From NCBI GenBank assembly GCA_024639825.1, contig JAHEGH010000002.1:28575-92574 (forward strand): a stretch of 64,000 nucleotides of DNA, written 5' to 3'. The DNA comes from Gammaproteobacteria bacterium (GTDB lineage: Bacteria; Pseudomonadota; Gammaproteobacteria; Steroidobacterales; Woeseiaceae). The notes under the pieces are model-generated. The model was given only the letters and a program-made list of their open reading frames with translations, was not told the origin of the DNA and did no database searches. Position 1 is the first letter of the stretch, and every line of letters begins with the position of its first letter. Shown one piece after another: positions 6,922-53,263 of the stretch. A program made the translations under genes and the position numbers.

Positions 6922-8270
6922 GCCACTTTCTCGCAAAGTCTATGCGCGTTAGCTTTTGCCCAGAAGTATCCCAGGGTTCCTGAAAGAATATTAGCAACCG
7001 CGTAGGCACCGAAGATGCCCGCAATACCGAACAGCTCTTTGCCGATGAAAGCCAGCGGTATATACAAAACCAGGATTCGGGTAACGCTGATCACCACGCC
7101 GGGCAGCGGGTTCCCGAGGCCGTTGAACGCTGCATTGACGACCATGACGAGGCCGTAGGCACCGTAGCTGATCGGCGCGATCCACATGAACAGCCGGGTC
7201 ACATCCGTAACGGCCGGGTTGTCGCTGAATAGTCCCGGTACGACGCCGGACAAAAGTGCCAGAACCACTGCAATCACGAGGCCGCTCAGGAGACAGAAGC
7301 TCGCACACAGTCGCAGCGAGTGCTGAATTCTGTCTTCCTTACCCGCAGACAGGTTCTGGCCAACAAACGGACCGATGATCGACGACATCGCGTAATACAT
7401 GACGAGCACCATCGACTCAACCCGACTCGCGACACCGAAGCCGGCAACGGCTTCCGGTCCAAAGCGAGCGATCATCGCTGTGATCAGCGCCATACCGACA
7501 GGAACGATAGCGTTTGTCCCGGCTGCCGGCAGGCCAACATGAAGGATGTCGCGCCACGAGCGACGTATCTCGCCAGGCTCGGCATCTTTGAAACTGATCA
7601 TGTCCAGACGGTAGGCCAGGAAATAGATCGTGCCGACGAACATCGCACCCCGCGCGAGAAGCGCCGCGATCGCTGCACCATTGAGACCCAGCGCCGGGAC
7701 CGGCCCGAGACCGAAAATGAATATCGGATCGAGGCACACGTTCAATACCGCACCCGCAACCATGAGCTTGCTCGGCAAAACCGTATCGCCGGTTGCTCGC
7801 ATGCTACTGGTGCCCACCATGCCAATGACGAGGAAGGGCACGCCGCAGTAAAGAATCGTCATAAACGTGCGAATCATCGGAATCATGTCGTCCGGCGCAC
7901 CGAGCAGACGAAAGAGCGGATCGATCGTGAGAATCCCAATGAAGGACAACGAGGCCGTTATCAGGAACGACAACAGCAGGCTGTCGGTCGCAAGCCGCCT
8001 GGCTCGCCGGTGATCGCCGGAGCCGATCGCTCGCGCGACCACGGATGACGTACCGGCACCCAGACCGATCGCCACACTGGTGACGATCATCAGGATTGGA
8101 AAACCAAAACTGTAAGCCGCCAGCGCGCGGTCACCGACCATACCGAGAAAGTAGGTGTCGATAAACGACTGAGCCATCAACATGGTGATGCCAAGAAGCA
8201 CGGGCAAGGCCATGTTGACCAGGTGGGAGCCTACAGGGCCCTGCGTCAGTCTGGCCGGTTGGGAATTCAT
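6918..8270 (-). CDS. MATE family efflux transporter
   Basis: Start chosen at the internal ATG (MNSQPARLTQGPVGSHLVNMALPVLLGITMLMAQSFIDTYFLG). The longer ORF extension overlaps the NUDIX gene. Multi-pass membrane protein. Confidence 0.8.
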   Translation of the reverse strand: MNSQPARLTQGPVGSHLVNMALPVLLGITMLMAQSFIDTYFLGMVGDRALAAYSFGFPILMIVTSVAIGLGAGTSSVVARAIGSGDHRRARRLATDSLLLSFLITASLSFIGILTIDPLFRLLGAPDDMIPMIRTFMTILYCGVPFLVIGMVGTSSMRATGDTVLPSKLMVAGAVLNVCLDPIFIFGLGPVPALGLNGAAIAALLARGAMFVGTIYFLAYRLDMISFKDAEPGEIRRSWRDILHVGLPAAGTNAIVPVGMALITAMIARFGPEAVAGFGVASRVESMVLVMYYAMSSIIGPFVGQNLSAGKEDRIQHSLRLCASFCLLSGLVIAVVLALLSGVVPGLFSDNPAVTDVTRLFMWIAPISYGAYGLVMVVNAAFNGLGNPLPGVVISVTRILVLYIPLAFIGKELFGIAGIFGAYAVANILSGTLGYFWAKANAHRLCEKVA

Positions 8271-37826: not shown

Positions 37827-40067
37827 GTGCATTATGTTAATTCGGTGAGCAATATCTCAAACAGCCAGCAGCCCGTACTCAAGGTCGCGGTCAACGTGCC
37901 GCTGTCCCGCGAGTTCGATTACCTGCCCCCGACGGGTGCACCGGTGCCGGCACCGGGCTGCCGTGTACTCGTGCAGTTCGGGCCACGGCGCCAGGTGGGC
38001 CTCGTGGTCGGGCACGCGGACGGCTCGGACCTGCCGCACGAGAAGATTCGGCGCTGTATCGAGGTACTGGACGACAAGCCCCTGCTTGGCAAGGACGATC
38101 TGGCTCTTGTCCGATTTACGAGCAACTATTATCACCACCCTGTCGGCGAGGTCGTAGCCGCCGCCATGCCCGCGATCCTGCGGCAAGGCAAGGCTCTGCA
38201 CCCGGTTGTCGAAATGACTGCGATTACCGATCTTGGTGCCGCTGCCGACATAGCGGCCCTTACCAAACGGGCTCCCAGGCAGGCAGAGCTCCTCGAAACC
38301 CTGTGCGATGCTGGCGGTGACGGACTCGATGCAGAGCAGCTGACCGAACTGCTGCCAAACTGGCGCCGTGCAGCCAGGTCGTTGTTCACAAAGGGTCTCA
38401 TCGAGCGTTTCGAGACCCGCTGCGCGGAGTTCGACGAGACGCTCGCACCAGCGGCAACGCCCGGGCCCCAACTTAACGACGACCAGTGTAAGGCGCTCGA
38501 AACGCTGCGAAGCGACCTCAGCGTAGGGGCGTATTTGCTGGAGGGCGTCACCGGCAGCGGCAAGACCGAGGTCTACCTGCAGCGCATGCAGGACATGATC
38601 GAGCAGGGCAAACAGGTGCTCGTACTCGTTCCCGAAATCGGGCTGACGCCCCAGCTCGTTTCACGATTGCGAAAGCGGCTCGGTATCGAGCCGGCATTAT
38701 TGCATTCAGGCCTCACGGATATTGAGCGGCTTGCCGCCTGGCGGGCTGCCCGCTCAGGTGCGGCCCGACTCATTGTGGGTACGCGCTCCGCGATATTCAC
38801 ACCGCTGAAGAAACCGGGACTGATCATCGTCGACGAGGAACACGATCACTCATTCAAACAGCAGGAAGGCCTGCGTTACTCGGCGCGTGACCTCGCGATT
38901 GTGCGCGCCAAGCACCTTGGTGTTCCGGTCATCCTGGGCACCGCAACACCCACCCTTGAGATGCTGCACCATTGTCGCAGCGGCGCTTACAAGCTCATTC
39001 GTTTGCCGCGGCGAGCTGGCGGCGCAAAACCACCGACCCTGCGCCTTATCGATACGACGCGCGCGCCAGCCAGCGACGGACTCAGCGAGCCGCTGATCGA
39101 CGCAATCCGCAGCCACCTGCAGGCGGATGGCCAGGTATTGATATTCCTCAACCGGCGCGGCTTCGCCCCGACCCTGATTTGCTCAAGCTGCGGTCATGTC
39201 GCCGGGTGCGATCGCTGTGACTCGCGCCTGACCGTGCACGCGCGCCAGGGACAGCTGCGGTGCCACCACTGTGGTTTGACGCGCCCACTCACGCCTGCCT
39301 GCAGCGAATGCGGAGAAACGGTCAAGCCCCTGGGAGAGGGGACCGAGCGGCTCGAGGAGGCACTACGCAGCCACTTTCCCGACCGCACCATCATGCGGAT
39401 CGACAGCGACAGCACGCAAAAAAAGGGGGCCATGCTCGATGCCCTCGATCAGGCGAAAGAGGGACAGGCGGAGATTATTGTCGGCACACAAATGCTGTCC
39501 AAGGGGCACCACTTTCCGAAGTTGTCGCTGGTTGGCATCGTCAATGCGGACCAGGGCCTTTTCGGCGCCGACTTCCGCAGCAGTGAACGTATGGCACAGT
39601 CGATCGTGCAGGTCGCTGGCCGGGCCGGGAGGGAGCTCCGGGCTGGAGAGGTTCTGATCCAGACCGCGTTTCCGGAACACGCTTTCTGGTCGACGCTGAT
39701 CAACGGCGGTTATGAGCGCGTCGCTGAGGAAGCGCTTGCTGAACGCGAGGCCACACACTGGCCGCCCTATACGCGCCTTGCCCTGATTCGTGCGGCTGCC
39801 CACCGGCGGGACGACGCGATCCGCTTTCTTGAGATCGCGCAACGCTCATTGCAGCAACATTGCGGCGACCAGCTGCGTGTTCTCGGCCCCGTCGATGCGC
39901 CCATGGCACGCAGGGCCGGACGACATCGCGCACAGCTGTTGCTGCAATCTACCGATCGCCGAACCTTGCACGTCTTGCTGCGCGAGCTCCGATTACTCCT
40001 CGAACAGGAGCCAGCTGCTCGCAAGGTTCGCTGGTCAATCGACGTGGACCCGATCGAATTGTTCTGA
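37827..40067 (+). CDS. priA: Primosomal protein N' (replication restart helicase PriA)
   Basis: Walker A (GVTGSGKTEVY), DEEH box (IIVDEEHD) and a Cys-rich zinc region (CSSCGHVAGCDRCDSRLTVH...CHHCG...CSECG). The exact start (GTG 37827 or GTG 37845) is uncertain. Confidence 0.92.
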   Translation: MHYVNSVSNISNSQQPVLKVAVNVPLSREFDYLPPTGAPVPAPGCRVLVQFGPRRQVGLVVGHADGSDLPHEKIRRCIEVLDDKPLLGKDDLALVRFTSNYYHHPVGEVVAAAMPAILRQGKALHPVVEMTAITDLGAAADIAALTKRAPRQAELLETLCDAGGDGLDAEQLTELLPNWRRAARSLFTKGLIERFETRCAEFDETLAPAATPGPQLNDDQCKALETLRSDLSVGAYLLEGVTGSGKTEVYLQRMQDMIEQGKQVLVLVPEIGLTPQLVSRLRKRLGIEPALLHSGLTDIERLAAWRAARSGAARLIVGTRSAIFTPLKKPGLIIVDEEHDHSFKQQEGLRYSARDLAIVRAKHLGVPVILGTATPTLEMLHHCRSGAYKLIRLPRRAGGAKPPTLRLIDTTRAPASDGLSEPLIDAIRSHLQADGQVLIFLNRRGFAPTLICSSCGHVAGCDRCDSRLTVHARQGQLRCHHCGLTRPLTPACSECGETVKPLGEGTERLEEALRSHFPDRTIMRIDSDSTQKKGAMLDALDQAKEGQAEIIVGTQMLSKGHHFPKLSLVGIVNADQGLFGADFRSSERMAQSIVQVAGRAGRELRAGEVLIQTAFPEHAFWSTLINGGYERVAEEALAEREATHWPPYTRLALIRAAAHRRDDAIRFLEIAQRSLQQHCGDQLRVLGPVDAPMARRAGRHRAQLLLQSTDRRTLHVLLRELRLLLEQEPAARKVRWSIDVDPIELF

Positions 40068-40071
40068 TTCA

Positions 40072-41829
40072 ATGCGCGCCATGAAACATATCGTCGCCGA
40101 ACTTGTACAAACCGCCCTGTCTGGCCTGCCGGAGCTCTCTGAGGCCGCTGCCGATCTTGCGATCGAAGGCACCGTGGAGCGCACGCGTGACGCCAGTCAC
40201 GGAGACTTCGCCAGCAACGTCGCGATGCGCCTGGCAAAGCCTGCCCGCAAGAGCCCGCGCGACGTTGCTGCCGCTATTGTGGAGGCGCTGGGCGATAGCC
40301 CGGCCGTGGACAAGATCGAGATCGCTGGCCCGGGGTTCATCAACTTCTACCTGAGCCCCGCCGCCTTTCATGCCGAACTCGAGGCCATTCTGACTGCCGG
40401 TGAGCACTACGGTCGGCAGGCGCCAAAAGAACACCCGAGGATACTCCTCGAATTTGTATCGGCTAATCCAACCGGACCGCTGCATGTCGGGCATGGACGC
40501 GGTGCGTCCTACGGCGCCACGGTAGGCAATCTTCTCGAGGCCGTCGGCTACCCCGTGCACCGGGAATACTACGTCAACGATGCTGGCCGCCAGATGGATA
40601 TTCTCGGCGCCAGCGTCTGGCTGCGCTGGCTTGAAGCGAACGGAGTCGACGTCGATTTTCCACGGGGCGGTTACCGCGGCGAGTACATTCGCGAAATTGC
40701 GGCGGCCATCGATACGAGCGGCATCGAGCCGGTTTCGGCCGACGCTGTGTCAGAGGGGCTACCGGAAAACACCGACGAGAATGCCGACGCCTACGTCGAC
40801 GCCCTCGTTGCACGCTGCAAGGAACTGCATGGCGAAGACGGCTTCGACAGGATGCGCCAGCAGGCTCTCGAATCGATTCGCGATGAAATTCGTGACGACC
40901 TCGAGGAGTTCGGCGTGCATTTCGACGAGTGGTTCTCCGAGCAAAGCCTGACAAAGGCCAATCGTGTCGACGATGCACTCGCTGTACTCGAAGAGCGCGG
41001 CATGCTGTACAAGAAAGATGGCGCTACCTGGTTTCCGGCCACGCAGTTCGGTGATGAAAAAGATCGCGTCGTCGTACGTGACAACGGCGTCAAAACCTAC
41101 TTTGCCTCGGACATCGCCTACCACTTTGACAAACGCGAGCGTGGCTACGATCACTTGATCGACATACTTGGCGCAGACCACCACGGCTATGTCACTCGTG
41201 TGCGCGCGGGGCTCGAGGCGATGGGTTACGAGGCGGACGACCTTGAGGTCAAACTTGTGCAGTTCGTGACACTCTATCGCGGCGGGGAGCGGATGCAGAT
41301 GTCCACGCGTTCGGGCCAGTTCGACACACTGCGCCAGCTGCGCAACGAGGTCGGCAACGACGCGGCGCGCTTCTACTACGTGATGCGTTCAAACGACCAG
41401 CACCTGGATTTCGACCTCGACATTGCGACCTCGCAGTCAAACGACAATCCGGTGTACTACATTCAGTATGCACATGCGCGCGTTGCGAGCGTCTTTCGCC
41501 AGCTCGACGAAAAGTCGCTGCAGTGGAACGAGGCGAACGGTCGCGACCGATTGAGCCTGCTTATAGAGCCGCAGGAAAAAGCGCTCATGACGACATTGAG
41601 CCGCTATCCCGAGGTCGTTGAACTCGCTGCGAACAATCGAGCGCCACAACATCTGGTGCATTACCTGCGCGATCTTGCGAACGATTTTCACACCTATTAC
41701 AACGCGCACGCATTTATCGTTGACGATGTGGCGTTGCGCGACGCTCGCCTCTACCTGATCTGTGCAACTCGCAATGTCGTTGCCAATGGCCTTCGCATCC
41801 TTGGCGTCTCGGCGCCTGAGAAAATGTAA
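40072..41829 (+). CDS. argS: Arginine--tRNA ligase
   Basis: HIGH-type motif (NPTGPLHVGHGRG), DALAVLEERGMLY and the C-terminal anticodon-binding DALR domain. Start at 40072 or 40081. Confidence 0.92.
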   Translation: MRAMKHIVAELVQTALSGLPELSEAAADLAIEGTVERTRDASHGDFASNVAMRLAKPARKSPRDVAAAIVEALGDSPAVDKIEIAGPGFINFYLSPAAFHAELEAILTAGEHYGRQAPKEHPRILLEFVSANPTGPLHVGHGRGASYGATVGNLLEAVGYPVHREYYVNDAGRQMDILGASVWLRWLEANGVDVDFPRGGYRGEYIREIAAAIDTSGIEPVSADAVSEGLPENTDENADAYVDALVARCKELHGEDGFDRMRQQALESIRDEIRDDLEEFGVHFDEWFSEQSLTKANRVDDALAVLEERGMLYKKDGATWFPATQFGDEKDRVVVRDNGVKTYFASDIAYHFDKRERGYDHLIDILGADHHGYVTRVRAGLEAMGYEADDLEVKLVQFVTLYRGGERMQMSTRSGQFDTLRQLRNEVGNDAARFYYVMRSNDQHLDFDLDIATSQSNDNPVYYIQYAHARVASVFRQLDEKSLQWNEANGRDRLSLLIEPQEKALMTTLSRYPEVVELAANNRAPQHLVHYLRDLANDFHTYYNAHAFIVDDVALRDARLYLICATRNVVANGLRILGVSAPEKM

Positions 41830-42440
41830 TGGCGCAGAGGAAAAAGAAGCGCCGTTCGACGCGCACGCCCGCCAAGTCGGGAACATCGCCCGTCGTTTCC
41901 ATGTTGTTCGGTCTCGCTGTCGGCCTGTCGGTTGCCGTCGCCGTGTACGTCAAGGACCGTCGCCCGGAACCTTTGGGAAGGCCTTCCGGCCCGGCTCCCG
42001 CAATGGCCGAAACCGCCCCCACACCTGCGAGCATGCGAGACGTGCTCGATGATAACGGTGAGTCCAAGGGAGGCTCCTCAGGCCCGAGCGAAGAAAAAGA
42101 AAAGCGCTTCACCTTCTACGACATCCTGCCAAATGTCGAAATCGTTACGCCTGAGGAAGCGCCCGAGACCCAAACAGATGCGGCACCACAGGCTGTAATC
42201 GAACCTGGCCTCTACGTTCTGCAGGCCGGCTCATTCTCGACTAACGCCGATGCCGATCGCCGCCGCGCTGAACTTGCGTTGCACGGTATCGAATCAATCA
42301 CCCAGCGCGTCAAGGTCAATGACCGTAATTACCACCGCGTGTACATTGGTCCGACCGACGATCTTGATGAACTGAATATGCTGCGCAGCCGTCTGCGTGC
42401 AGCCAAGATAGACGTTCTCCGAATTCGACTCAGTGATTAG
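41829..42440 (+). CDS. SPOR domain-containing cell-division-type protein
   Basis: N-terminal basic segment plus a TM helix, a disordered linker and a C-terminal SPOR domain (YVLQAGSFSTNADADRRRAELALHGI...YHRVYIGP). TAATG overlap with the argS stop. Confidence 0.8.
   Translation: MAQRKKKRRSTRTPAKSGTSPVVSMLFGLAVGLSVAVAVYVKDRRPEPLGRPSGPAPAMAETAPTPASMRDVLDDNGESKGGSSGPSEEKEKRFTFYDILPNVEIVTPEEAPETQTDAAPQAVIEPGLYVLQAGSFSTNADADRRRAELALHGIESITQRVKVNDRNYHRVYIGPTDDLDELNMLRSRLRAAKIDVLRIRLSD
41966..42022 (+). repeat. Degenerate copy of the REP-like element, read in frame within the SPOR gene linker
   Basis: GGAACCTTTGGGAAGGCCTTCCGGCCCG matches 42555-42582 at 25 of 28 positions. The right end (GGCCGAAACCGCCCCCAC) resembles GGCTGAAGCCGCTCCCAC. 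Confidence 0.4.
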
Positions 42441-43623
42441 CGCCCGCACAACGCTCTTTCTTCTCGCGCTGTCGTTGCTGGCAGCCTGCGCTACACCGCC
42501 GGAACCTGTGGCAGGGCCTGACCCTGTGGCAGGGCCGGAACCTGTGGGAGGGCCGGAACCTGTGGGAGGGCCTTCAGGCCCGAAGGGCGTCGCGGCTGAA
42601 GCCGCTCCCACGCTGATTACTATCGCCTCGGTTGGCGACATGATGATCGGCACCGAGTTCCCGCAGAACCACCTGCCCGACGACGATGCGGTTAGTTTCC
42701 TCGCCCACGTTACACCGATACTTTCCGCTGCTGACATTGCCTTTGGCAATCTCGAGGGCGTGTTGATGGATGGTGGCGAACCCGCCAAGAAGTGCAGCAA
42801 TCCAAGCGCGTGTTACCTGTTCCGTTCCCCAACCCGCTATGCACAGCGTTACCGCGACGCGGGTTTCGATGTCCTCAGCCTTGCGAACAATCACGCACGG
42901 GATTTTGGCGAAGAGGGACGCACCAGCAGTATGGAGGCGATTGCGGCGGCCGGCATGCACCACTCCGGCCGGGTGGATGACTTTGCGAGCCTGGAACAGG
43001 ATGGCCTGAAGATCGCCGTGCTCGCTTACGCAGTTACCAAGAATTCGAACATGCTGCTCGACTATGAGCTCGCGTTCACAACCGTGGCGGAATTTGCCGC
43101 GACGCATGACATCGTCATCGTATCGTTTCATGGCGGCGCGGAAGGCGCGGACGTCACCCACGTGCCATTCGCTGAAGAGGAGTACTACGGTGAACCCCGC
43201 GGAGATATCGTCTGGTTTGCCCGTGGTGTTGTCGATGCGGGGGCAGATCTTGTCATCGGTCATGGCCCACACGTCGTGCGCGGCATGGAGCGTTACAAGG
43301 ACAGGCTGATTGCCTACAGCCTGGGTAACTTCGCCACCTACTACGGCATCAGCGTCGCGGGAATCAAAGGCATCGCGCCCATTTTGACCACGACGCTGGA
43401 CGGTGAGGGGAAATTCATCGAGGGAAACATTGTCTCAACTATCCAGCTGCGGCCCGACGGCCCCAGCATTGACCCGAAGAATCGAGCATTGAACCTGATT
43501 CGCGGATTATCTGTTGAGGACTTCGGCGAACCGGGCCTGGCCTTTTTGCCGGATGGCAGCGTGCTCCCGGTCGATCGACCCGACGTACCGAACCATGAGT
43601 TAGCGCCTAGTCGTCCGAACTAA
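42433..43623 (+). CDS. CapA family (PGA_cap metallophosphatase-like) lipoprotein
   Basis: Lipobox LSLLAAC, a Pro/Gly repeat linker, and CapA motifs (SVGDMMIG, LSLANNHARDFG, VSFHGGAEG, IGHGPHVVRG, YSLGNF). Confidence 0.8.
   Translation: MISARTTLFLLALSLLAACATPPEPVAGPDPVAGPEPVGGPEPVGGPSGPKGVAAEAAPTLITIASVGDMMIGTEFPQNHLPDDDAVSFLAHVTPILSAADIAFGNLEGVLMDGGEPAKKCSNPSACYLFRSPTRYAQRYRDAGFDVLSLANNHARDFGEEGRTSSMEAIAAAGMHHSGRVDDFASLEQDGLKIAVLAYAVTKNSNMLLDYELAFTTVAEFAATHDIVIVSFHGGAEGADVTHVPFAEEEYYGEPRGDIVWFARGVVDAGADLVIGHGPHVVRGMERYKDRLIAYSLGNFATYYGISVAGIKGIAPILTTTLDGEGKFIEGNIVSTIQLRPDGPSIDPKNRALNLIRGLSVEDFGEPGLAFLPDGSVLPVDRPDVPNHELAPSRPN
42502..42573 (+). repeat. Tandem repeat, 4 x 18 nt, coding (PEPVAG/PDPVAG/PEPVGG/PEPVGG)
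   Basis: The units are GAACCTGTGGCAGGGCCT, GACCCTGTGGCAGGGCCG, GAACCTGTGGGAGGGCCG and GAACCTGTGGGAGGGCCT, arranged head to tail. Confidence 0.85.
42559..42611 (+). repeat. Partial REP-like palindromic element copy inside the capA-like gene
   Basis: GTGGGAGGGCCTTCAGGCCCGAA (23 nt) and GGCTGAAGCCGCTCCCAC (18 nt) are identical to the inner and right-arm parts of the element at 49335-49398. Confidence 0.6.
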
Positions 43624-44977
43624 CCGACTTGAAGTCGACGCCCAGCGACCGGAGCTTCCGGTACAGGTGCGTTCTCTCCATACCAACACGTTTCGCCAAA
43701 TGCCCCACCTTGCCACCGCATAGCACCAGCTGTTGCTGCAGGTAGGCCCTTTCGAACTGCTCGCGAGCTTCACGCAATGGCAGAGCCAGCAGGTCCTGCT
43801 TGACGAGCGGTTCGTCGAGCAGCGGCGCGCTAGCGGAAATTTCCGCTTCCACTTCTTCGAGCGCAATGTCATCACTGCTGCCCGACAAGAGCAGGCGACG
43901 CACGAGGTTCTTCAGTTCGCGAACGTTATCCGGCCACGGGTAGTTGCGCAGCCTGTTCTGGGCAGCAACGCTGAAGCGCCGGAAGGTCAGGCCTTCCGAA
44001 TCGACCAGCTTGTCAACGTAATACGTCAGTAACTCCGGAACGTCTTCGGCGTAGTCCCGCAATGGCGGAATACGCAAAAACAAATCGCTAAGATGCGAAA
44101 TGAGATCACGGCGTAACTCGCCGGCTACAATGCGCGCCTCGTACTCGGGTCCGACGGTCGCTACGACACGAGCATCGACCCTCATGGGCGACGTGCCCCC
44201 GATACGGGTGAACCTGCCGCTCTCCAGAATCCCGAACAGCACCCTCTGCGCGACGAGCCCGAGGTCCGAGAGTTCGTCGATAACGAGTGTGCCGCCCGAT
44301 GCTCTTTCAAAGGCGCCTGCGGTCACTTCGCCGTCGCGCTCGCTGCCGAGGAGCTGCTCTTCGCAATTTGCGTCCGTTATCGACGCAGCGGTCAACGTCG
44401 TCAGCGGTTCGTCGGCACGACGACTGAGTCCATGCATATAGCGGGCGAACGCGCCACGACCCGTGCCGGGTTCGCCACTCATCAGAACCGAACCCTCATG
44501 ACGTGCGTATTGTTGAACGCGCTCTCGCAGGCCCTGCATGAGCGCGCTGCGCCCAACCGGAGCAAGCAATGACGGCAACAGACTGCGCGCCGCTCTCGAT
44601 TGCTTGCCCGCCGATTCGAGGGCGGCCTCCACCGTGCGCAATAGCTTGGCGAGGGACAGCGGTTTCTCGACGAAATCGAAGGCGCCGAGACGGGTTGCTT
44701 CGACAGCGGTATCAACGGTGCCGTGGCCCGACATGATGACCACCGGGCAATTAAGCTCGCCATCGTCGGACCACTCTCTGAGTAACGTGATGCCATCAGT
44801 GTCCGGCATCCAGATGTCGAGGAGAATCAAGTCGAACTTGTGGTCCGCTCGTGCACTACGCGCTTCCGCCGCATTAGCGGCAACCGTAACGCCGTAACTC
44901 TCGTCCGCAAGAATATCCTTGATCAACGTGCGGATATCCGCTTCGTCATCGACCACCAGTACATGAGGATTACTCAT
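43607..44977 (-). CDS. NtrX-like response regulator (receiver + degenerate AAA+ + Fis-type HTH)
   Basis: Receiver domain (VLVVDDE...[10 protein letters not shown]), a sigma54-activator-like core without GAFTGA and with GEPGTGRG as its Walker A, and a C-terminal HTH ([23 protein letters not shown]). Confidence 0.8.
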
Positions 44978-47208
44978 GCTTGTTCCCTCCTTTTCTCGGC
45001 GCGTCCAGGCGCTTTGGCAATCATCAGTTCACGTGCCGCCTCATTGAGTGGCAACCGTATGCTAATCATCGCTCCCCCGTCTTTGCGATTCCTGGCCCTG
45101 ATCGAGCCGGCATGTTCTTCCACGAGCTTCTTAACAATCGCGAGGCCCAGGCCAGTGCCTTTCGGCTTGGTTGTGACGTAGGGATCGAAAATCTGGCTAA
45201 TCGAGCCCGTCTGGAACCCCGGCCCGTTGTCTTCTACTTTGATCTGCACAATCTTGACGGCGTCGACTTCGGCCACGCTTACCTGCACATCAATCTGGCC
45301 GTCAGCTGAGTTCTCGAGGGCCTCGACGGCATTGCGAAGAAGGTTGTGCAGCATCTGCCGTATGCGACCCATGTCCGCCTCGATCATCGGCATGGTCGGG
45401 TCCGATGTGAGGACGATCCGTATTTTGTTCTCCTGCGTGCGGTACAGGTCGACGACCTCATGCACGAGCTTGTCGAGATCAAAGAGACTCAAATCCATGT
45501 CCGGTGCGCGCGCGTAGTCACTGAACGCGTTGACCATCTCCTTCATCGCCTCCACCTGTTGCACGATAGTGTGCGTTGCACGATCGAGAATCTGCGCCTC
45601 TTCTGCGGGCATCGTGTGCAGGTATTTGTGGCGCATGCGCTCAGCTGACAACTGAATGGGCGTAAGCGGGTTCTTGATCTCGTGCGCCAACCTCCGCGCC
45701 ACCTCGCCCCAGGCCGCATCGCGCTGCGCTTGCAGCAATGCCGTGATGTCGTCAAAGACGACCACGTAACCGGCGGCATGGTCCTTATCACCCGGGAGCG
45801 CGGTGCAAGCGCAGGTCAGGACCCTTCTGCCCACCTCGCCGCGCAGCACAATCTGTTCGCGCCACTCTGTTTCCCCGGCGTCCAGATGCACTTGAGCAAC
45901 ATCGACAAATTGTTCCAGTAGCGCGTGTCCCTTAGCCACCTCAGCCAACGGCTCTCCCGTGCGATGCTCAAGATTAACGCCGAGGATCGATCCGGCAGCC
46001 TGGTTAGCATTCCGTATCCGCAAGTCTGACTCCAGCGCGAGTACGCCCGTCGACAGGCGCGCCAGGATAACTTCGAGGTTCGTACGCTCTGCCTCGACCA
46101 GCGCCTGGCTAAGGCTGGCCTCGCGTCGCGCCGTCGCAAGGCGCTGTGTCATATCGTTGAATGAGCTGATCAGGAAGCCAATCTCGTCGCGCGTTGGCGT
46201 TGGCAGTCGCATGTCAAAGTCACCCATTGCAACCGCGCGCGTACCGGCCACGAGATCCTGGATGGGCGCGACCAGCCGGCGGGACAGGACGAACGCGCCA
46301 GCGATCGCCGTCAACAGGCTGAGCAGTAGTACGAACGCCAGCGTCCAGGTCAGGAGGTCTTTCAGGTCCTCCCGGAAGAACACCAGTTGCTGGTACTCCT
46401 GATATGAGCGCTCGACGCTGCTCACCATCTTCCCGAGTCGATCGGCCACCGGGTAGTGCCCCTGCAGGACGCGCGCCTGTTGCGCGCGGCCACCGCGATA
46501 GGTGAAGACAACGGCAGTACGCACTTCGACGCGACCAGAGGACATCGATTCGAGGCTGACGAAAGGGCGTGCCTGCTGCATCTGCAGTACGACTTCTTCG
46601 GTCAGCGGCTTCGGCAGACTTGCGGTTGCGCTGTCGGTACTGGTTGCAAGCACGGTGTTGTTGTCACCGTAGAGCGTCATCTCGCTCGCGCCGCTTTCTC
46701 GGCGCAACATGCCGAGCTCAGAAACCAGCCGTCGCTCGTTGGCCACAGCGAGACGCTGCGCAGCCAGCTGCGTTGACTGCAGGTTGCGGCGCTTCTGGAA
46801 TTCAAGCGCAGCCCTGCTCAGCGCAAGCGCGTTGTCGAGGCCATCTTCGACTTCCACGTTAAACCAGCTGTCGATGCCGCGGTTGATAAACTGCGTGGAA
46901 AAGTAAAAGACGACGATGAGCGGCAGCACCGCAAGCCCGACGAACATACCCACCATGCGTGCTTTGAGTTTTGCGCCGGGTACGTTGTTGCGATAATCAC
47001 TGAACAGGCGCGACAGATTGCCAATCAGCAGCGCGATCAGCAACACACCGCCGACAATATTGGTCCACAGGATAATTTCCTGCATGCGATCGAAGTCGGC
47101 CGACCTCTGCACCGTTTGGGTCAGCAGAAACAGCGCCGCAAGGGCCATGCCGACACCAAGCGTCGCAATCAGGATATAAAAGGCTCGTTTCAGTGTTCGA
47201 GCAACCAT
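44974..47208 (-). CDS. NtrY-like sensor histidine kinase
   Basis: Four N-terminal TM helices, HAMP and PAS domains, an H-box ([17 protein letters not shown]) and an HATPase domain (DNGPGF...[20 protein letters not shown]). ATGA overlap with the regulator gene. Confidence 0.85.
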
Positions 47209-47789
47209 TCAAACCATTCGCTTTGTAACTGCCATTCGCCGCGCCAGAAAAACAGCACACGCAGTGCGGCGGGATAGCGTTCCGTATTGAGCATGGCCCG
47301 CAGCCGCACGCGGTATTCTGCTTCGGCATCGAGTAAGGCATCGTCAATAACGGGCAATCCCTGGACACGGCCCAGGCTGTTCAGCGCGGAGTAGAGCGTC
47401 GCGAAGGAGTCCTGATCTCCACTATTGTTGTTGCGAACGATGTAACGCTGACTGACCGGCGAGTACTCTAGTTCGTAACGAAGCGTGAGTTCCGCCTCGA
47501 TATCGTCGGGGATAAAGCGACGCGAGCGTATCACCTGCAGCTGCAGCTCTATGGTCAGCGTGACGCCACTCTCCAGCGCGGCGAGCGCTTCGGAGGACAG
47601 GACCAGCTGCAGTCGTGCGTCCAGCCTGTGCACGCCATTAGCGAGTTCAGTCGATGCCGAGCGGACTTCGAAATAGCCCTCGCGCTCAACATCCTGCGCC
47701 AGCCCCGTACCCAGGGCGAGCGTAGCCAGCAGTACGAGCAAGGCGTACTTGTTGCCTGATTTCGTTGTTCCAGCGGGTTTGAGTGACAT
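47190..47789 (-). CDS. DUF4390-like exported protein
   Basis: Signal peptide ([15 protein letters not shown]). It sits between rsmB and the NtrY-like kinase, the position I recall for DUF4390. Contains [21 protein letters not shown]...[10 protein letters not shown]. Confidence 0.55.
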
Positions 47790-47797
47790 CGTCTTCT

Positions 47798-49123
47798 TCA
47801 GGAGGCCTTCTTGACGAGGCATGCGTAGTAAAAACCATCGAGTCCTGCCGTTCCGGGCAGAATCTGATAGCCACACGCCTTCCTCCGCATTAGATCGCGG
47901 ATGTTGTTATTTGGCAACACGCTGTCTTCCACCGCGTCGTCATTGGCCTCAAGGAATCCCTGCACTACGCCATCGTTCTCCGCTGCGAGAACCGAACAGG
48001 TGACATACAACAGCCGCCCGCCGGGTGCCAGCACCTGCCATAACGCGCTCAGTATGGCCCCCTGCAGGACCCTGAGATCGTCGATATCGCTCGCTCGCCG
48101 CAGCAATTTGATATCGGGATGGCGGCGAATCACTCCTGTCGCCGAACAGGGCGCATCGAGCAAAACCGCGTCAAACGGTGTGCCATCCCACCATTCTCCA
48201 GGTTTTGATGCATCGGCGATCTTAATGGTTGCATCCAGCCCAATACGCGCATGATTCTCTCGAACAAGCTCGATGCGCCTCGCATCACTGTCGATAGCCG
48301 TGAGTTCGAACCCGGCACCACCCAACTCCAGCAGGTGGCCGCTCTTGCCGCCGGGCGCGGCGCAGGCATCAAGCACCCGCCTCGGGTTATCCGCCATGAG
48401 CCAGCGCGCAGGAATCTGCGCCGCTGCATCCTGTACCGACGCGTCACCGTCCATGAATCCAGGCAGTTCCTCAACGCTGCAGGGCTCGGTGAGTCGCACA
48501 GCATCCGGTATGCCTTCGAGCAGCTCAGCCGCCTTATCGTCACCAGCGAGGCGCACCAGATACTCCGGCGCAGACTGGCGCGCAGAATTTACCCGCAACC
48601 ACATCGGTGCCCGTGAATTATTTGCTTCGAGAATGGCCTGGTAGTCATCAGGCCAGTCCTTGTGCAGCTTATCCAGGAGCCATTGCGGGTGGTTCCAGCG
48701 GACCGCTTCGTCACCCGCGACCTGTTCGGCCATTTTTTCCCGGGTGAAACGACGCAGACAGGCATTCAACAGGCCCGCGAGTTTTGGGCGACGTAACTGA
48801 CGCGCGGCTTCCACCGTTTGCGACACCGCGGCGTGATCGGGAATGCGTGTATCGCAGAGCTGAAACAACCCCACCGCGAGCAGTGCATTGATGACGCTGT
48901 CCCGTTTTTTTAGCGGACGGCCTAGTAGCTGGCCGATCCAGTGCTGTAGTTGCCAGTGCTTACGTACGGTGCCGAAACACAGCATGCGCAGCAGCGAACG
49001 GTCCGCCTCAGAGACGCGTCCCTCGCACCCGGCGATCGCCGCATCCAGCGACTGTCCGCCGCTGACAACCGCGTCGACAACTTCCGCCGCAACTGCCCGT
49101 GTCTTCGCCCCCGAATTCGCCAT
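47798..49123 (-). CDS. rsmB: 16S rRNA (cytosine967-C5)-methyltransferase
   Basis: NusB-like N-terminal domain, SAM motif (VLDACAAPGGKS) and catalytic motifs (VLLDAPCSATGVIRRHPD, LLYVTCS). Confidence 0.92.
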   Translation of the reverse strand: MANSGAKTRAVAAEVVDAVVSGGQSLDAAIAGCEGRVSEADRSLLRMLCFGTVRKHWQLQHWIGQLLGRPLKKRDSVINALLAVGLFQLCDTRIPDHAAVSQTVEAARQLRRPKLAGLLNACLRRFTREKMAEQVAGDEAVRWNHPQWLLDKLHKDWPDDYQAILEANNSRAPMWLRVNSARQSAPEYLVRLAGDDKAAELLEGIPDAVRLTEPCSVEELPGFMDGDASVQDAAAQIPARWLMADNPRRVLDACAAPGGKSGHLLELGGAGFELTAIDSDARRIELVRENHARIGLDATIKIADASKPGEWWDGTPFDAVLLDAPCSATGVIRRHPDIKLLRRASDIDDLRVLQGAILSALWQVLAPGGRLLYVTCSVLAAENDGVVQGFLEANDDAVEDSVLPNNNIRDLMRRKACGYQILPGTAGLDGFYYACLVKKAS

Positions 49124-49125
49124 GT

Positions 49126-50115
49126 TTATTCGAGCCTCTGTCCCGAGAGATCCAGCTGACCCGCGAATTCCTGCGCCGTCGCGCGACGCTTACCGGGCAA
49201 CTGCAATTCATCAAGGCGCAGCGCACCGGCGCCACTCGCAACGATAATGCCGTTGCGATCACTTCGCAGGACCGTACCGGGCTCGGCCGACCCATCGACG
49301 GCCGTGGCTCGCCAGACCTTTAGTCTGCAACCCTGTGGGAGCGGCTTCAGCGGTGGGAGGGCCTTCAGGCCCGAATTGGCGGCTGAAGCCGCTCCCACGA
49401 AACAATAGGCACCCGGGAACGGGTTGTAGGCACGCACTCGTCGTACCAGTTCGGCCGCCGGCAAAGACCAGTCGATGGCCGCATCCTGCTTCTCAATCTT
49501 GGGCGCGTAGGTCGTCCGGGCTTCGTCTTGCGCTGCCGAGACCAGCTCGCCCGCGAGAATATCGTCCAGGTGCGCTATCAGCGTAGCGCCACCGAGTGCG
49601 GCGAGCCGGTCGTGCAGCTCACCGGCAGTCTCATTGACGCCGATCTCGATCTCTTCAATATGAAATACAGGACCGCAGTCCAGCCCGGCCGTCATTGCCA
49701 TCAGGCTGACGCCCGTTCTGGCATCGCCTGCGAGTATGGCGGCCTGGATCGGCGCCGCACCCCGCCACCGCGGGAGAACAGAGGCATGCACATTCAGGCA
49801 ACCCTGCACAGGAATATCCAGAACGTTCTGCGGCAGGATAAGACCGTAGGCGGCGACGATCATCAGATCGGGCCGCAACGCCGCAAGGTCCGCCACCACG
49901 CTCTCGTCGCGCAACGTGACCGGCTGCATAACGGGAATCCCCCGCTGCTCCGCATACTGCTTGACCGGGCTTGCCGTAAGTTTCTTGCCGCGGCCGGCAG
50001 GGCGATCCGGTTGTGTCAGCACTGCGATCGGCACTCGCCCGGATTCGACCAGTGCCGTTAGCGACGCAAGCGCGAAATCCGGCGTGCCGGCGAAAATAAT
50101 CCTGGGAGTGGTCAT
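49126..50115 (-). CDS. fmt: Methionyl-tRNA formyltransferase, carrying an in-frame palindromic insertion
   Basis: IIFAGTPDFA, QPDRPAGRGKK, CLNVHASVLPRWRGAAPIQ. It is 329 aa, and residues 240-260 are encoded by the repeat at 49335-49398. Confidence 0.93.
   Translation of the reverse strand: MTTPRIIFAGTPDFALASLTALVESGRVPIAVLTQPDRPAGRGKKLTASPVKQYAEQRGIPVMQPVTLRDESVVADLAALRPDLMIVAAYGLILPQNVLDIPVQGCLNVHASVLPRWRGAAPIQAAILAGDARTGVSLMAMTAGLDCGPVFHIEEIEIGVNETAGELHDRLAALGGATLIAHLDDILAGELVSAAQDEARTTYAPKIEKQDAAIDWSLPAAELVRRVRAYNPFPGAYCFVGAASAANSGLKALPPLKPLPQGCRLKVWRATAVDGSAEPGTVLRSDRNGIIVASGAGALRLDELQLPGKRRATAQEFAGQLDLSGQRLE
49335..49398. repeat. Nested palindromic REP-like element, full copy
   Basis: A 17-bp perfect outer stem (GTGGGAGCGGCTTCAGC / GCTGAAGCCGCTCCCAC) encloses an inner hairpin (GGGCC-TTCA-GGCCC). 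Confidence 0.8.
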
Positions 50116-50142
50116 TGGTCTGTTTGCCGGAGCGCTGCCCGC

Positions 50143-50655
50143 CTAGACCGGGACCGCCGCGTTGCGCCGCTCTTTTTCCAGCTTCTTGCGAATTCGCTGG
50201 CGCTTCGCCTCGGACAGGTAGTCCACGAACAGCTTGCCATCGAGATGATCCATCTCGTGTTGTATGCAAACCGCGAGCAGGCCCTCGGCCTCCATCTCCA
50301 CCGCCTCGCCCTTGCGATCCAGGAAACGAACGCGAATATGTTCCGCACGCTCCACCGACTCGTAGTACCCGGGGACGGACAAACACCCTTCATCCGTCAC
50401 GGTCACGCCGTCCTTCTCGATAATTTCCGGGTTGATCAGCGCGAAGGGCTCCGATTTGTCCGATGACACATCAGCGACGAGCAGGCGCTTGTGGACGTCG
50501 ACCTGCGTCGCGGCCAGACCAATACCCGGTGCGTCGTACATGGTCTCGAACATGTCCCCGATCAGCGCGCGCAGCGCGTCATCCACCACCTCAACAGGGG
50601 CGGCCTTCTTCCGCAACCGCGGGTCAGGAAACTCCAATATCTTCAGTTTTGCCAT
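50143..50655 (-). CDS. def: Peptide deformylase
   Basis: [16 protein letters not shown] and HEMDHLDG metal-binding motifs. Start taken at [14 protein letters not shown]. Confidence 0.95.
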
Positions 50656-50939
50656 AATTTCCGTTGAGCCTTTCGACCCGTTAACCATGCAATATCGCTG
50701 TTTTGCAACATAATAAAACCAGCGTCGTTTTCGCGTGAATTCCTATAAATGCGACCTAAATGTTTGACTTTATTGAATAAGATGTCAGACAATGCCGCCA
50801 GAAATGCACCCTTCCGGACGTTATTTGGGGCCGGAAATGTGACGTAATTAGCAGCCTCGGCAGTACCGGCACGACATAGTATAGCAACGCCTTGAAAGTA
50901 CGGGCCTAAACTGAATTGTTTGTAGGGAGTCCTCGCGAC

Positions 50940-52100
50940 ATGTCACTCAGCAACACTAGCCTGAAATCCAGCCTTCGGCTGACCGCTGCCACACTGGCCC
51001 TGACATTGGCCGGTTGCGGGGGTAATCCGCCCGCATACGAGAGCAGCCCAGCCGCTCCGACAGTAACCTCCGGAGGCACCTCGATGGAGAGCGGCTATGC
51101 CGAGCCCGCGGCTTACGAGCCCGTTCTGCAGCGCATCAATGAACCCGTGCCACTCGCCGAAGGCCATCCCAACGAGTATGTCGTTCAGGTAGGCGACACG
51201 CTGTGGGACATCGCAGGAACGTTCCTCAAAGACCCCTGGTATTGGCCCGAAATCTGGTATGTCAATCCGGACATCGTAAACCCGCATCTGATCTATCCGG
51301 GTGATGTGCTTGGCCTCGTATACATCGACGGCCAGCCGCGTATCACGAACGTCCGCGCGTCGACCTATCGCATGTCGCCGCAAGCGCGCGTAACGCCATT
51401 GACAGAGTCGATCAGCAGCATTCCCTATGAAGATGTAGCCGCGTTCCTGAGTTCGGGCGTGGTTTTGGAGAAGAAACAGGCGGATTCGCTGCCGTACCTC
51501 CTGCAAACCCGCGGTGATCACCTGATTGCTTCAGCCGGCAACGAAATTTATGTTCGCGGTATTACCCAGGACACACCGGGCGTTCGCTTCAGCGTCGTGC
51601 ATGTTGGCGACCCGCTCTACGACCCCGATGACAATCGACTGATCGGCTACCAGGGTATTCCCGTTGGTGACGGGCGTTTGCGTCGCGGTGGGGACCCGGC
51701 CACGGTCGCTCTGACAGACACGAAGATGGAAGCCAAGCCGGGCGACCGTCTGCTTCCCGAGGAAGTCGACATCCCGCTGAACTTCTTCCCACGCTCACCG
51801 AGCAGCGCCATTGATGGCCGTATCATCTCGGTGGTTGGGGGTGTAACGCAGATTGGCCAGTACATGGTCGTTGTGATTAACCGCGGTTCGAATAAAGGCC
51901 TGTCGGTCGGCGATGTGCTGACTGTATTCCAGGTCGGCGAAGAGGTGCAGGACCGCTTCGGTGGCGGCAAAGTGCGCCTGCCGGAAGAAGAAGCCGGTAC
52001 CGTGATGATATTCAAGACCTATGATCGCATCAGCTACGGTCTTGTCATGGAAGCCACTCAAGCCATCCATATTCACGACTCGGTTCGTAACCCAAGCTAA
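50940..52100 (+). CDS. tsaP: LysM domain lipoprotein (TsaP-like, secretin-associated)
   Basis: Lipobox LTLAGC and a LysM motif (YVVQVGDTLWDIAGTFLKDPWYWPEIW..NPHLIYPGDVL). It occupies the conserved position divergent from def and upstream of dprA. Confidence 0.7.
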   Translation: MSLSNTSLKSSLRLTAATLALTLAGCGGNPPAYESSPAAPTVTSGGTSMESGYAEPAAYEPVLQRINEPVPLAEGHPNEYVVQVGDTLWDIAGTFLKDPWYWPEIWYVNPDIVNPHLIYPGDVLGLVYIDGQPRITNVRASTYRMSPQARVTPLTESISSIPYEDVAAFLSSGVVLEKKQADSLPYLLQTRGDHLIASAGNEIYVRGITQDTPGVRFSVVHVGDPLYDPDDNRLIGYQGIPVGDGRLRRGGDPATVALTDTKMEAKPGDRLLPEEVDIPLNFFPRSPSSAIDGRIISVVGGVTQIGQYMVVVINRGSNKGLSVGDVLTVFQVGEEVQDRFGGGKVRLPEEEAGTVMIFKTYDRISYGLVMEATQAIHIHDSVRNPS

Positions 52101-52120
52101 AACTCTTATCTTTCGCAATT

Positions 52121-52159
52121 AATACCGCGCGGCGCTGTGCGCCGACGCGGTATTATTTT
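52121..52159 (+). terminator. Hairpin terminator after the LysM gene
   Basis: AATACCGCGCGGCGC-TGT-GCGCCGACGCGGTATT followed by ATTTTG. It ends 4 nt before the dprA ATG. Confidence 0.6.
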
Positions 52160-52162
52160 GCG

Positions 52163-53263
52163 ATGCAACCAGACCGCCGCCCCTGGCTGATCCTCGCTCA
52201 CGCACACCTTCGTGTTCCCGACCTGCAGGCATTGCTCGAGCTGTTCGGCACCGCGGAGGCCATCGTCGACCAGCCGCGCAGCCGACTTGCCGAGACGGGG
52301 CTGTCAGACGCGAAATGCGCCGCCATCACATCCCCGGACGAACGGGCCGTGGCAGCAGAGCTGTCCTGGCTTGGCGACACCGGGCACCACCTCACCGCGT
52401 GGGGCGACGGACTTTACCCCGAGATGCTCGCGCAAATTCCCGGGGCGCCCCTGCTCCTGTACGTTAATGGTGATATCGAGGCCCTGCACCTGCCTGCCCT
52501 CGCCATCGTCGGCAGCCGTAACCCGACGCAGGGCGGCAGCCGTAACGCGCACGACTTTGCACAACACCTGGCCGCCCGCGGCTTTGCCATCGTAAGCGGG
52601 CTGGCCCAGGGTATCGACGCTGCCGCACACGAAGGCGCGATCGATGCGGGTGGCAAGACGATCGCATTTCTGGGCACTGGCATCGACCGGGTGTACCCAG
52701 CCACCAACCGCAAGCTCGCACACGCCATCGCCGCCAGCGGCGCGCTGGTGAGTGAATATCCCCTGGGCTCAGCGCCCGAACGCTGGCACTTTCCCGAGCG
52801 CAACCGGCTGATCAGCGGCGTGAGTCTCGGCACGCTGGTGGTCGAAGCCGCTCGCCGCAGCGGCTCTCTCATTACAGCGCGACTCGCCGCCGAACAGGGC
52901 CGCGAGGTATTCGCGCTCCCCGGTTCTATCCATAATCCACTGGCCCGCGGTTGCCATGAGCTCATTCGCCAAGGTGCGAAACTCGTCGAAACGGCTGGCG
53001 ACATTCTTGCCGAACTGAGCCCATTGACCGGACATATGCTGGAAACCGCCGAAGAATCGACGTTTGAGAAAGCCTCGGCCCACCTGCCCGATGACGACTA
53101 CGCGGAACTGCGCAGAGTCCTCAGCCACGATCCTGTGAGCATCGACGAACTCGAAAAACGATCTGGATTGACGATCGAGCAGCTTTCCTCCATGCTTCTG
53201 ATCCTGGAGCTCCATGGAGAAGTGGAGTCCTTGTCCGGCGGACGATATGCCCTAGCGGGCTAG
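52163..53263 (+). CDS. dprA: DNA-processing protein DprA
   Basis: IVSGLAQGIDAAAHEGA, IAFLGTGIDRVYP, FPERNRLISG and SGSLITARLAAEQGREVFALPG. Confidence 0.92.
   Translation: MQPDRRPWLILAHAHLRVPDLQALLELFGTAEAIVDQPRSRLAETGLSDAKCAAITSPDERAVAAELSWLGDTGHHLTAWGDGLYPEMLAQIPGAPLLLYVNGDIEALHLPALAIVGSRNPTQGGSRNAHDFAQHLAARGFAIVSGLAQGIDAAAHEGAIDAGGKTIAFLGTGIDRVYPATNRKLAHAIAASGALVSEYPLGSAPERWHFPERNRLISGVSLGTLVVEAARRSGSLITARLAAEQGREVFALPGSIHNPLARGCHELIRQGAKLVETAGDILAELSPLTGHMLETAEESTFEKASAHLPDDDYAELRRVLSHDPVSIDELEKRSGLTIEQLSSMLLILELHGEVESLSGGRYALAG

Follow-up and report, generated by a model that had tools for sequence, protein, structure and literature searches.

The methionyl-tRNA formyltransferase gene (fmt) of the window, by which we mean the whole 64,000-nt stretch of DNA analyzed here, contains a 64-nt cluster of REP sequences that is read in frame as part of the protein. 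We consider it very probable that with this cluster a selfish REP/REPIN copy has become fixed in a loop of Fmt that is permissive, where it would be translated as a disordered segment with no required function and rearranged through its own palindromes. The evidence comprises the identity of its units with dispersed REPs, the insert's being present or absent among close relatives, its inversion and step-wise lengths, its location in a loop, and an enzyme core that looks intact. The features concerned are as follows.

49126-50115, minus strand: fmt (methionyl-tRNA formyltransferase, 329 aa), with Formyl_trans_N and Formyl_trans_C domains, in a def-fmt-rsmB arrangement.
50143-50688: def, flanking fmt.
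47798-49123: rsmB, flanking fmt.
49335-49398, minus strand: REP cluster of 64 nt, whose in-frame translation gives Fmt residues 240-260 (V240-P260, VGAASAANSGLKALPPLKPLP).
49379-49398, minus strand (forward on the coding strand): REP head A (GTGGGAGCGGCTTCAGCCGC), exact match, encoding VGAASAA.
49353-49372, plus strand (inverted relative to fmt): REP head B (GTGGGAGGGCCTTCAGGCCC), exact match and the same as 42562-42581, forming the inner hairpin.
49335-49354, plus strand (inverted relative to fmt): third REP head, type A, 18/20 identical to head A, with a 2-nt overlap with the end of head B.

Positions 49335-49398 of the window read GTGGGAGCGGCTTCAGC-GGTGGGAGGGCCTTCAGGCCCGAATTGGCG-GCTGAAGCCGCTCCCAC. 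The two arms, GTGGGAGCGGCTTCAGC (49335-49351) and GCTGAAGCCGCTCCCAC (49382-49398), were paired by the repeat finder at 17/17 positions, 30 nt apart, around a GGGCC-TTCA-GGCCC hairpin at about 49359-49372. The original prediction had described this perfect 17-bp outer stem and inner hairpin, as well as the translation of the element on the minus strand as residues 240-260, and all were found as it stated. The coding (minus)-strand RNA folded at -47.3 kcal/mol, compared with -28.3 ± 3.4 kcal/mol in 200 dinucleotide shuffles (z = -5.5), none of which folded as well (0/200). With up to 3 mismatches allowed, the window contained 6 matches to the 17-mer of the outer arm, the expectation being 0.27.

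The same prediction treated the element as one 64-nt nested palindrome; the palindrome is real, but a REP doublet with one further head is the better description. The element is built from three REP heads of 20 nt that fall into two types, namely head A (GTGGGA-GCGGC-TTCA-GCCGC) and head B (GTGGGA-GGGCC-TTCA-GGCCC). On the coding strand they are arranged as A> CAATTC <B <A', with 0, 0 and 2 mismatches to their respective heads, and the first 17 nt of the third head constitute the outer arm that pairs perfectly with head A. Heads A and B both fit the definition of GTAG-type REPs, an imperfect stem-loop palindrome of 20-40 nt that bears GT[A/G]G at one end (here GTGG, then GA, a 5-bp stem and a TTCA loop), and the inverted doublet that defines REPINs was present both in fmt (A> spacer <B) and at 42562-42611 (B> spacer <A). 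Four of the six frames through the fmt element are open. An Rfam scan of positions 40000-52500 returned no family match, and the combination of TIR and target-site duplication expected of a MITE was absent, there being no flanking direct repeat (TGTTTC ... AGGGTT).

In a scan of one genome per species, GTGGGAGSGSCTTCAGSCSC was found in at least 119 stretches. Hosts among the matches listed included Pseudomonas, Lysobacter and other Xanthomonadales, Woeseiaceae MAGs, Sedimenticola and Aromatoleum, and the typical arrangement among the matches listed was an intergenic inverted doublet, 10-70 nt apart, such as CTGTGGGAGCGGCTTCAGCCGCGA...TCGCGGCTGAAGCCGCTCCCACAG, which is REPIN geometry. The fetched loci contained 30 inverted doublets and 97 matches to the head A 20-mer, the commonest type in them, and L. 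enzymogenes ATCC 29487 and Lysobacter sp. CA199 accounted for 5 of the fetched stretches each. GTAG-headed forms of the heads' cores were present in loci L208 and L111. Within the window, exact 20-mers recurred at 42562-42581 and 42592-42611. A search for a RAYT gave a divided answer: in Arenimonas composti (L111), a Y1_Tnp gene fragment (IS200-like, RAYT-type; PF01797, E = 1.5e-7) was separated by 59 nt from a cluster of the REPs, but none was detected in the 64-kb window by a crude regex for HUH and Y motifs over all ORFs. Because exact 20-mers are dispersed as REPIN doublets and a Y1_Tnp fragment stands beside copies, the fmt element appears to belong to a widespread GT[A/G]G-headed REP family. 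The doublets of locus L033 are intergenic, between ordinary genes; a RAYT between two of them was considered and rejected, the intervening genes reading as a HAD-type phosphatase and a methyltransferase, both housekeeping-like.

We retrieved the 120 closest Fmt homologues (69-99% identity) and compared the segment from NPFPG to R-x-K-V-W. This segment comprised 8 residues in 86/120 homologues (e.g. AFFFAGDT) and 28 in the window. The site was empty in P0005 and P0006 (~89% aa identity, insert gap discounted) and in loci L124-L126 and L128 (~90% DNA identity to the window), all of which carry the 8-residue segment SFFFANEM. The empty DNA of L124 reads TTT TTC GCG AAC GAA ATG CGC, and the occupied DNA of the window reads TGT TTC [GTG GGA ... 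CCA CAG] GGT TGC AGA. The original prediction of 21 extra residues from 64 nt was right about the insertion and wrong about its size: a 24-aa stretch stands in place of a 4-residue beta-turn, and the net gain over empty alleles is therefore 20 aa (60 nt), rather than 64 nt cleanly added. We looked at the fmt insert for a clean signature of a target site or of excision and found none, because the 4-residue turn was replaced and the boundaries are ambiguous; the insertion was thus no clean cut-and-paste. As in other in-frame intragenic REPs, the element lies wholly inside the ORF, the frame is kept, and shorter homologues exist without the insert.

The same Fmt protein occurred on an independent Logan contig (L120), and assemblies from JGI, ENA, Logan and NCBI supplied occupied alleles that clustered into groups of 4, 31 and 12 sequences. 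Across def-fmt-rsmB, the DNA of L121, L127, L124 and the window was mutually ~90% identical, with conflicting segments and no clear branching order, and the empty allele (P0005) may be either ancestral or regained by recombination or secondary loss. Because ~90%-identical loci are empty and the insert peptides are not conserved, the fmt insert appears, to judge from these sequences, to be recent and dispensable.

When aligned with the window protein, the solved Fmt structures 3tqq, 5uai and 1fmt/2fmt showed a 20-residue gap exactly at the insert. Residue numbering was the same as in E. coli Fmt up to residue 237. In an AlphaFold2 model built on a 38-sequence alignment (mean pLDDT 85.7, pTM 0.85), the insert was flanked by strands 237-243 and 264-273 and had a pLDDT of ~52 (whether taken over residues 241-260 or 244-263), falling below 50 at residues 246-255. 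It is thus predicted to form a loop, of low confidence, at a beta-hairpin tip of the Fmt C-terminal barrel, which agrees with the earlier suggestion of an insertion between two strands of the C-terminal domain. The enzyme core looks intact in the model, because it superposes on 2fmt, 5uai and 3tqq (TM-scores 0.83-0.89) and because N108, H110 and D146, which we take to be the catalytic residues of E. coli Fmt, are invariant in the homologue alignment (A1). The insert-flanking residues R264, K266 and W268 were also invariant in the alignment. The original prediction called fmt essential, which is stronger than known biology allows, loss of fmt being severe yet not lethal in several bacteria.

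The interior of the element was inverted in other alleles. At the same fmt position and between the same derived flanks, L121 (P0002) and L127 (P0003) carried a 64-nt element whose interior is reverse-complemented relative to that of the window. When the 64-mers of the window and L121 were compared, 34/64 positions were identical directly and 58/64 as the reverse complement; over the inner 30 nt the values were 5/30 and 29/30, respectively. The derived flanks TGTTT(C/T) and AGGGTTGCAGA were common to the window and L121 elements, the outer arms had decayed in L121 and L127, and the encoded peptide read AANSGLKALPP in the window orientation versus AVGGPSGPNSR in the inverted one. A second clade (~76% identical to the window) also had both orientations, with the following head orders.

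Loci L129 and L213: A> <B.
Locus L211: A'> B> <A.
Locus L212: composite A'> A> B> <A.

Arrays of 18-nt heads were present in L129, L212 and L213, and 6-residue differences within 90% identity clusters (P0124 vs P0002; P0168 vs P0170) corresponded to one 18-nt truncated head. Inserts ranged from 14 to 40 residues in length. The 18-nt periodicity was also seen upstream of a second REP doublet of the window, in a PGA_cap lipoprotein gene (4.2 copies), and in the SPOR gene of L121. From these comparisons we infer that the interior inverts via the inverted arms, by recombination or replication template switching, and that slippage gains or loses head units; neither change would disturb the frame, since 18 is divisible by three and the element is open in four of its six frames.

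The probable origin can be put as follows. A copy of a resident REP family (GT[A/G]G heads, normally intergenic doublets) would have landed in the Fmt hairpin tip and replaced the 4-residue turn, entering by RAYT-mediated transposition or (illegitimate) recombination. Because no stop interrupts the frame and the net difference in length is divisible by three, the element would be transcribed and translated, and about 20 extra, probably disordered residues would protrude from an otherwise unchanged enzyme, the protein presumably being made and active. The element would have no required function, would be neutral, and would persist because the Fmt loop tolerates it. Later, its interior would flip between the inverted arms by recombination or template switching, 18-nt head units would be duplicated or lost in 6-codon steps, and the arms would decay or become re-homogenized. 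Against this account stand the failure of the crude motif scan to reveal a RAYT in the 64-kb window, the intragenic position of all three REP loci of the window (few as these are), the unclean insertion, and the frequency of extra residues at the same turn in related Fmt proteins.

Occupancy of this turn was not confined to the window and its nearest relatives. More than 8 residues were found at exactly this turn in 34/120 homologues (all ≥69% identity), and the occupied homologues were scattered over at least 8 branches of an NJ tree with the insert masked, a tree that is poorly resolved. Several REP-like peptide families occupied the turn (VGAASA... / VGGPSGP...LKPLPQ; ...RPQGGLPQ; VGARHAGD...GRAQGALLQ; VGGGLPAT), and every insert checked at the DNA level was palindromic, began or ended (or both) with a GT[AG]GGA head, and folded at -24 to -51 kcal/mol. 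In L208, a MAG contig, the A>/<B doublet was intergenic at 8078-8121 (between dprA and a LysM gene) and also present in fmt at 10712-10757. In L209, GT[A/G]GGAGCCCGCCTTGCGG, which belongs to another REP family, was found directly after a response-regulator gene and also inside fmt. Among 69 more distant Fmt genes (≤66% identity), 56 had the 8-residue segment and 7 a 13-residue non-REP variant, and a REP-like insert at the turn was found in none (0/69). Because no such insert occurred in these 69 genes, occupancy appears to be specific to the uncultured clade around the window Fmt. Members of the occupied clade are labelled by NCBI as Gammaproteobacteria or Chromatiales MAGs, and the same REP 20-mers occur in Woeseiaceae MAGs.

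This repeated occupancy could reflect any of three processes: a preferred target that received independent insertions, a once-seeded site at which one REP replaced another, or survival through tolerance only. With extra residues at one turn in 34 of the 120 homologues, pure chance and tolerance may perhaps be an insufficient explanation. That the Fmt hairpin tip is an active hot spot, to which REPs have been directed repeatedly and independently in this clade, is possible though doubtful. The number of extended homologues and of branches that they occupy argues for it, as do the several unrelated REP cores at the turn, the identity of the resident REP family with the insert family in L208 and L209, and the retention of the 8-residue or 13-residue non-REP segment by nearly all homologues at ≤66% identity; REPs are known as targets of further insertions, in the account given in PMC1525189. 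One possible cause would be a resemblance of the turn codons A-G-E/D (GCN GGN GAN, e.g. TCGGGAGAA in L130) to the REP head GTGGGAG; alternatively, a resident REP might attract more REP insertion or ectopic gene conversion. However, the empty site is only partly like the REP head, and in L124 (GCGAACGAA) the likeness is absent. The four closest lineages are equidistant at ~90% in the poorly resolved tree, and one old insertion followed by recombination with empty alleles could yield the same distribution. A survivorship filter, under which inserts are seen only in tolerant loops, would equally concentrate them at this turn. We therefore regard a true targeting effect at the Fmt turn as rather doubtful. 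The fuller proposal of a lineage-specific hot spot, with several REP families entering, flipping and expanding in 6-codon steps and perhaps with directed entry, seems to us unlikely. If the hot-spot reading were true, the turn would be a natural, ongoing experiment in making protein segments from selfish palindromes.

It is improbable that the insert has been kept by selection, either as an adaptive extension of the tRNA-binding C-terminal domain or as an mRNA hairpin regulating the def-fmt-rsmB operon. Such a role would fit the commonness and stability of occupied alleles across dozens of assemblies, the invariance of the three residues beside the insert and the very stable RNA hairpin, and REPs can influence mRNA decay and termination in the cases that 10.64898/2026.03.23.713779 describes. 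It is difficult to reconcile with relatives that lack the insert at ~90% DNA identity, with a peptide that is wholly different between orientations and between REP families and so variable in length, with the disorder predicted by the model, and with the lack of an Rfam match. Moreover, the long hairpin is not conserved, because the outer arms have decayed in L121 and L127.

A fast, possibly programmed inversion resembling phase variation, which would give two Fmt isoforms per population, is very improbable. Both orientations do occur in two separate clades (window vs L121/L127; L129/L213 vs L211), and the 17/17 pairing of the window arms is as expected after recent intra-element exchange. However, orientation was fixed per 90% identity cluster (4/4 in the window cluster, and every full-length sequenced member of the clusters of P0003 and P0004), and an invertase or recombinase gene was not noticed among the neighboring genes. 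A dedicated system is also unnecessary, since replication template switching can, at evolutionary rates, invert a 30-bp spacer between 17-bp arms. An artefact, of assembly or by chimera formation, can be dismissed, and so can a lineage-specific loop with a chance palindrome: the window comes from a metagenome-type assembly and misassembly can create palindromes, but the identical protein in Logan and NCBI data, the occupied alleles in dozens of JGI and ENA contigs, the intact reading frame, the failure of any shuffle to fold as well and the exact 20-mers that recur in hundreds of REP copies elsewhere all contradict these readings.

A selfish REP copy in a tolerant loop has precedents. Intragenic REPs of the GTAG and CGTC types were catalogued in O. 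terrae, Thauera, Thioalkalivibrio, Xanthomonas, S. maltophilia and others (PMC3733652, Di Nocera 2013). In that catalogue, intragenic REP dimers encode 20-30 residues, their hosts include tRNA synthetases and truA/truB, recB of two Xanthomonas species carries different REPs at about one site, and the GTGG head variant is known for O. terrae; fmt is absent from its supplementary list of intragenic REPs (PMC3733652). The fmt case shares with these the 20-30 extra residues and the housekeeping hosts, and differs in adding empty and occupied alleles, inversion, 18-nt expansion and many lineages at one turn. Compared with GTAG REPs and REPINs in general (Nunvar 2010, PMC2817692; Bertels & Rainey 2011, PMC3116915; Di Nocera 2013, PMC3733652), the family has the same G+C-rich stem-loop behind a GT[A/G]G head, the same inverted doublets, 10-70 nt apart and able to form a longer hairpin, and the same wide spread over many Gammaproteobacteria and Betaproteobacteria, with a Y1 transposase gene beside copies in one genome. 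It differs in that the fmt copy and two other window loci are intragenic and in that the single-unit stems are short (5 bp and a TTCA loop). With the BIMEs of enterobacteria the element also shares REP units that alternate in orientation, heads of more than one type (A and B in this case) and defined spacers of short length (GAATTC). BIMEs are extragenic, with REPs of the Y/Z1/Z2 types and sites for IHF or gyrase.

It was in Rickettsia that palindromic repeats lying in frame within genes were first described (RPEs), according to the account in PMC10969869. As RPEs are presented there (Ogata 2000, 2002; PMC10969869), both they and the fmt element are selfish palindromes in frame in unrelated metabolic or housekeeping genes, at fold-compatible positions. 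The best-known RPEs, in the same account, are ~100-150 bp, form Rickettsia-specific families and encode a conserved peptide, whereas the fmt element is 64 nt, is made of 20-nt heads and encodes a peptide that is not conserved. Its size, unit structure, variable peptide and gammaproteobacterial hosts set it apart from the RPE families as so described. Intragenic ERIC/MITE sequences likewise are small repeats that add peptide segments to genes, but those treated by Delihas 2007 (PMC2759123, in PMC10969869) are >100 bp, TIR-bounded and usually accompanied by target-site duplications, an architecture that the fmt element lacks. The original prediction likened the element to RPEs and presented it as novel in its lineage and core gene; the likeness holds, but the novelty was overstated, since cases in free-living Proteobacteria were catalogued in 2013 (PMC3733652).

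In-frame intragenic REPs are thus already known, and the understanding of REPs or of Fmt is unchanged. What is new is that fmt serves as a host, that close relatives between them carry empty, occupied, inverted and expanded alleles, and that one turn is occupied repeatedly. The case provides a population-supported example of selfish palindromic DNA turned into protein sequence in a core translation enzyme. Its allele set makes testable the tolerance of an enzyme to inserts, the rearrangement of a palindrome within a reading frame, and the site preference of REPs.

The window contained 5 exact or near-exact heads at 2 loci and decayed copies at a third. Besides the fmt element, the following REP-derived features were found.

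42562-42611, plus strand: second REP doublet, B> GAAGGGCGTC <A (10-nt spacer), in frame as VGGPSGPKGVAAEAAPT.
42498-42572, plus strand: 4.2 tandem copies of an 18-nt truncated REP head (TRF period 18, 91% matches).
41973-42085, plus strand: decayed stretches of REP origin, at 41973-42022 and 42066-42085, within the linker of a protein with a SPOR domain (ORF 41829-42440).

Each of the three REP loci of the window falls within an ORF that has Pfam domains, and none is intergenic, which departs from the extragenic position that defines REPs; this all-intragenic pattern is unusual for a REP family, three loci being too few for conclusions. The second doublet sits in the tether right after the lipobox Cys of the PGA_cap lipoprotein (ORF 42433-43623), and the tandem array, which encodes (E/D)PV(A/G)GP repeats, runs into it. 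In the SPOR gene of L121 the doublet region is better preserved, and farther along comes a REP-B head preceded by additional head repeats of 18 nt. In L040, a Woeseiaceae MAG, head A is read as AAEAAPT in the linker that joins the E3-binding domain of a 2-oxoacid dehydrogenase E2 to its catalytic domain. Long ORFs across REPs in 22 loci from Woeseiaceae and other Gammaproteobacteria were set aside as mostly spurious Arg/Ala-rich frames; the only real-looking REP-spanning genes in these 22 loci were the E2 acyltransferase of L040 and one with the REP in the C-terminal tail of a histidine kinase (L048). The intragenic copies in the PGA_cap, SPOR and E2 genes all lie in flexible regions, which is consistent with a tolerance filter. 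For annotation, peptides of the VGAASA, RLKPLPQ or AAEAAPT type in Gammaproteobacteria are to be read as REP read-through and not as functional motifs.

REP-family matches in the 64-kb window fell at three loci, all of which were intragenic (3/3), with none in intergenic DNA. REPs are usually distributed in the reverse way, although a sample of three loci is too small for statistics. At the PGA_cap lipoprotein gene, the tether-coding region contained the following feature:

Window 42498-42572: truncated REP head of 18 nt, present as four tandem copies in the tether of the PGA_cap lipoprotein

Translation of these truncated-head copies yields the (E/D)PV(A/G)GP repeats of the protein. In L121, a relative whose def-fmt-rsmB DNA is ~90% identical to that of the window, the counterpart of this linker carries PAAPT repeats, placed after the REP doublet, instead of the (E/D)PV(A/G)GP repeats. 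The PGA_cap linker is therefore evolving fast through repeat expansion.

Two further inverted structures were observed in the window. A perfect 32-bp palindrome at 3738-3769 (CTCGCAATGACCGTCA|TGACGGTCATTGCGAG) showed no sequence relationship to the REP family and lay within the signal-peptide-coding portion of ORF 3119-3796 (-), whose translation, MNKRSGKIILAMTVMTVIASGCTT..., suggests a lipoprotein. The second, an inverted repeat at 40209-40273 (16-nt arms, 94% complementary, 33-nt spacer), was located within the long ORF 39790-41829 (+) and is also outside the REP family.

Among the Fmt homologues, P0166, a member of the P0009 cluster of similar sequences, reads ...SGLKALPQSSGLKALPQTAFLRQWKVTAAAGPC and then stops at 290 aa. 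Either this allele is a variant that has been frameshifted and has its <B unit (head B inverted relative to fmt) duplicated, or it reflects a contig-end or assembly error.

In a Woeseiaceae MAG (L040, ~6553-6572), head A is translated as AAEAAPT, a peptide that falls within the linker between domains of a 2-oxoacid dehydrogenase E2; this is a further case of an in-frame REP in a flexible linker. In Arenimonas composti, locus L111 contained two adjacent features:

L111 2-322: fragment of a Y1_Tnp (RAYT-type) gene, lying at the edge of the locus
L111 381-511: four REP heads of the window's REP family, directly after the Y1_Tnp fragment

Together, the fragment and heads look like a REPtron-type arrangement.
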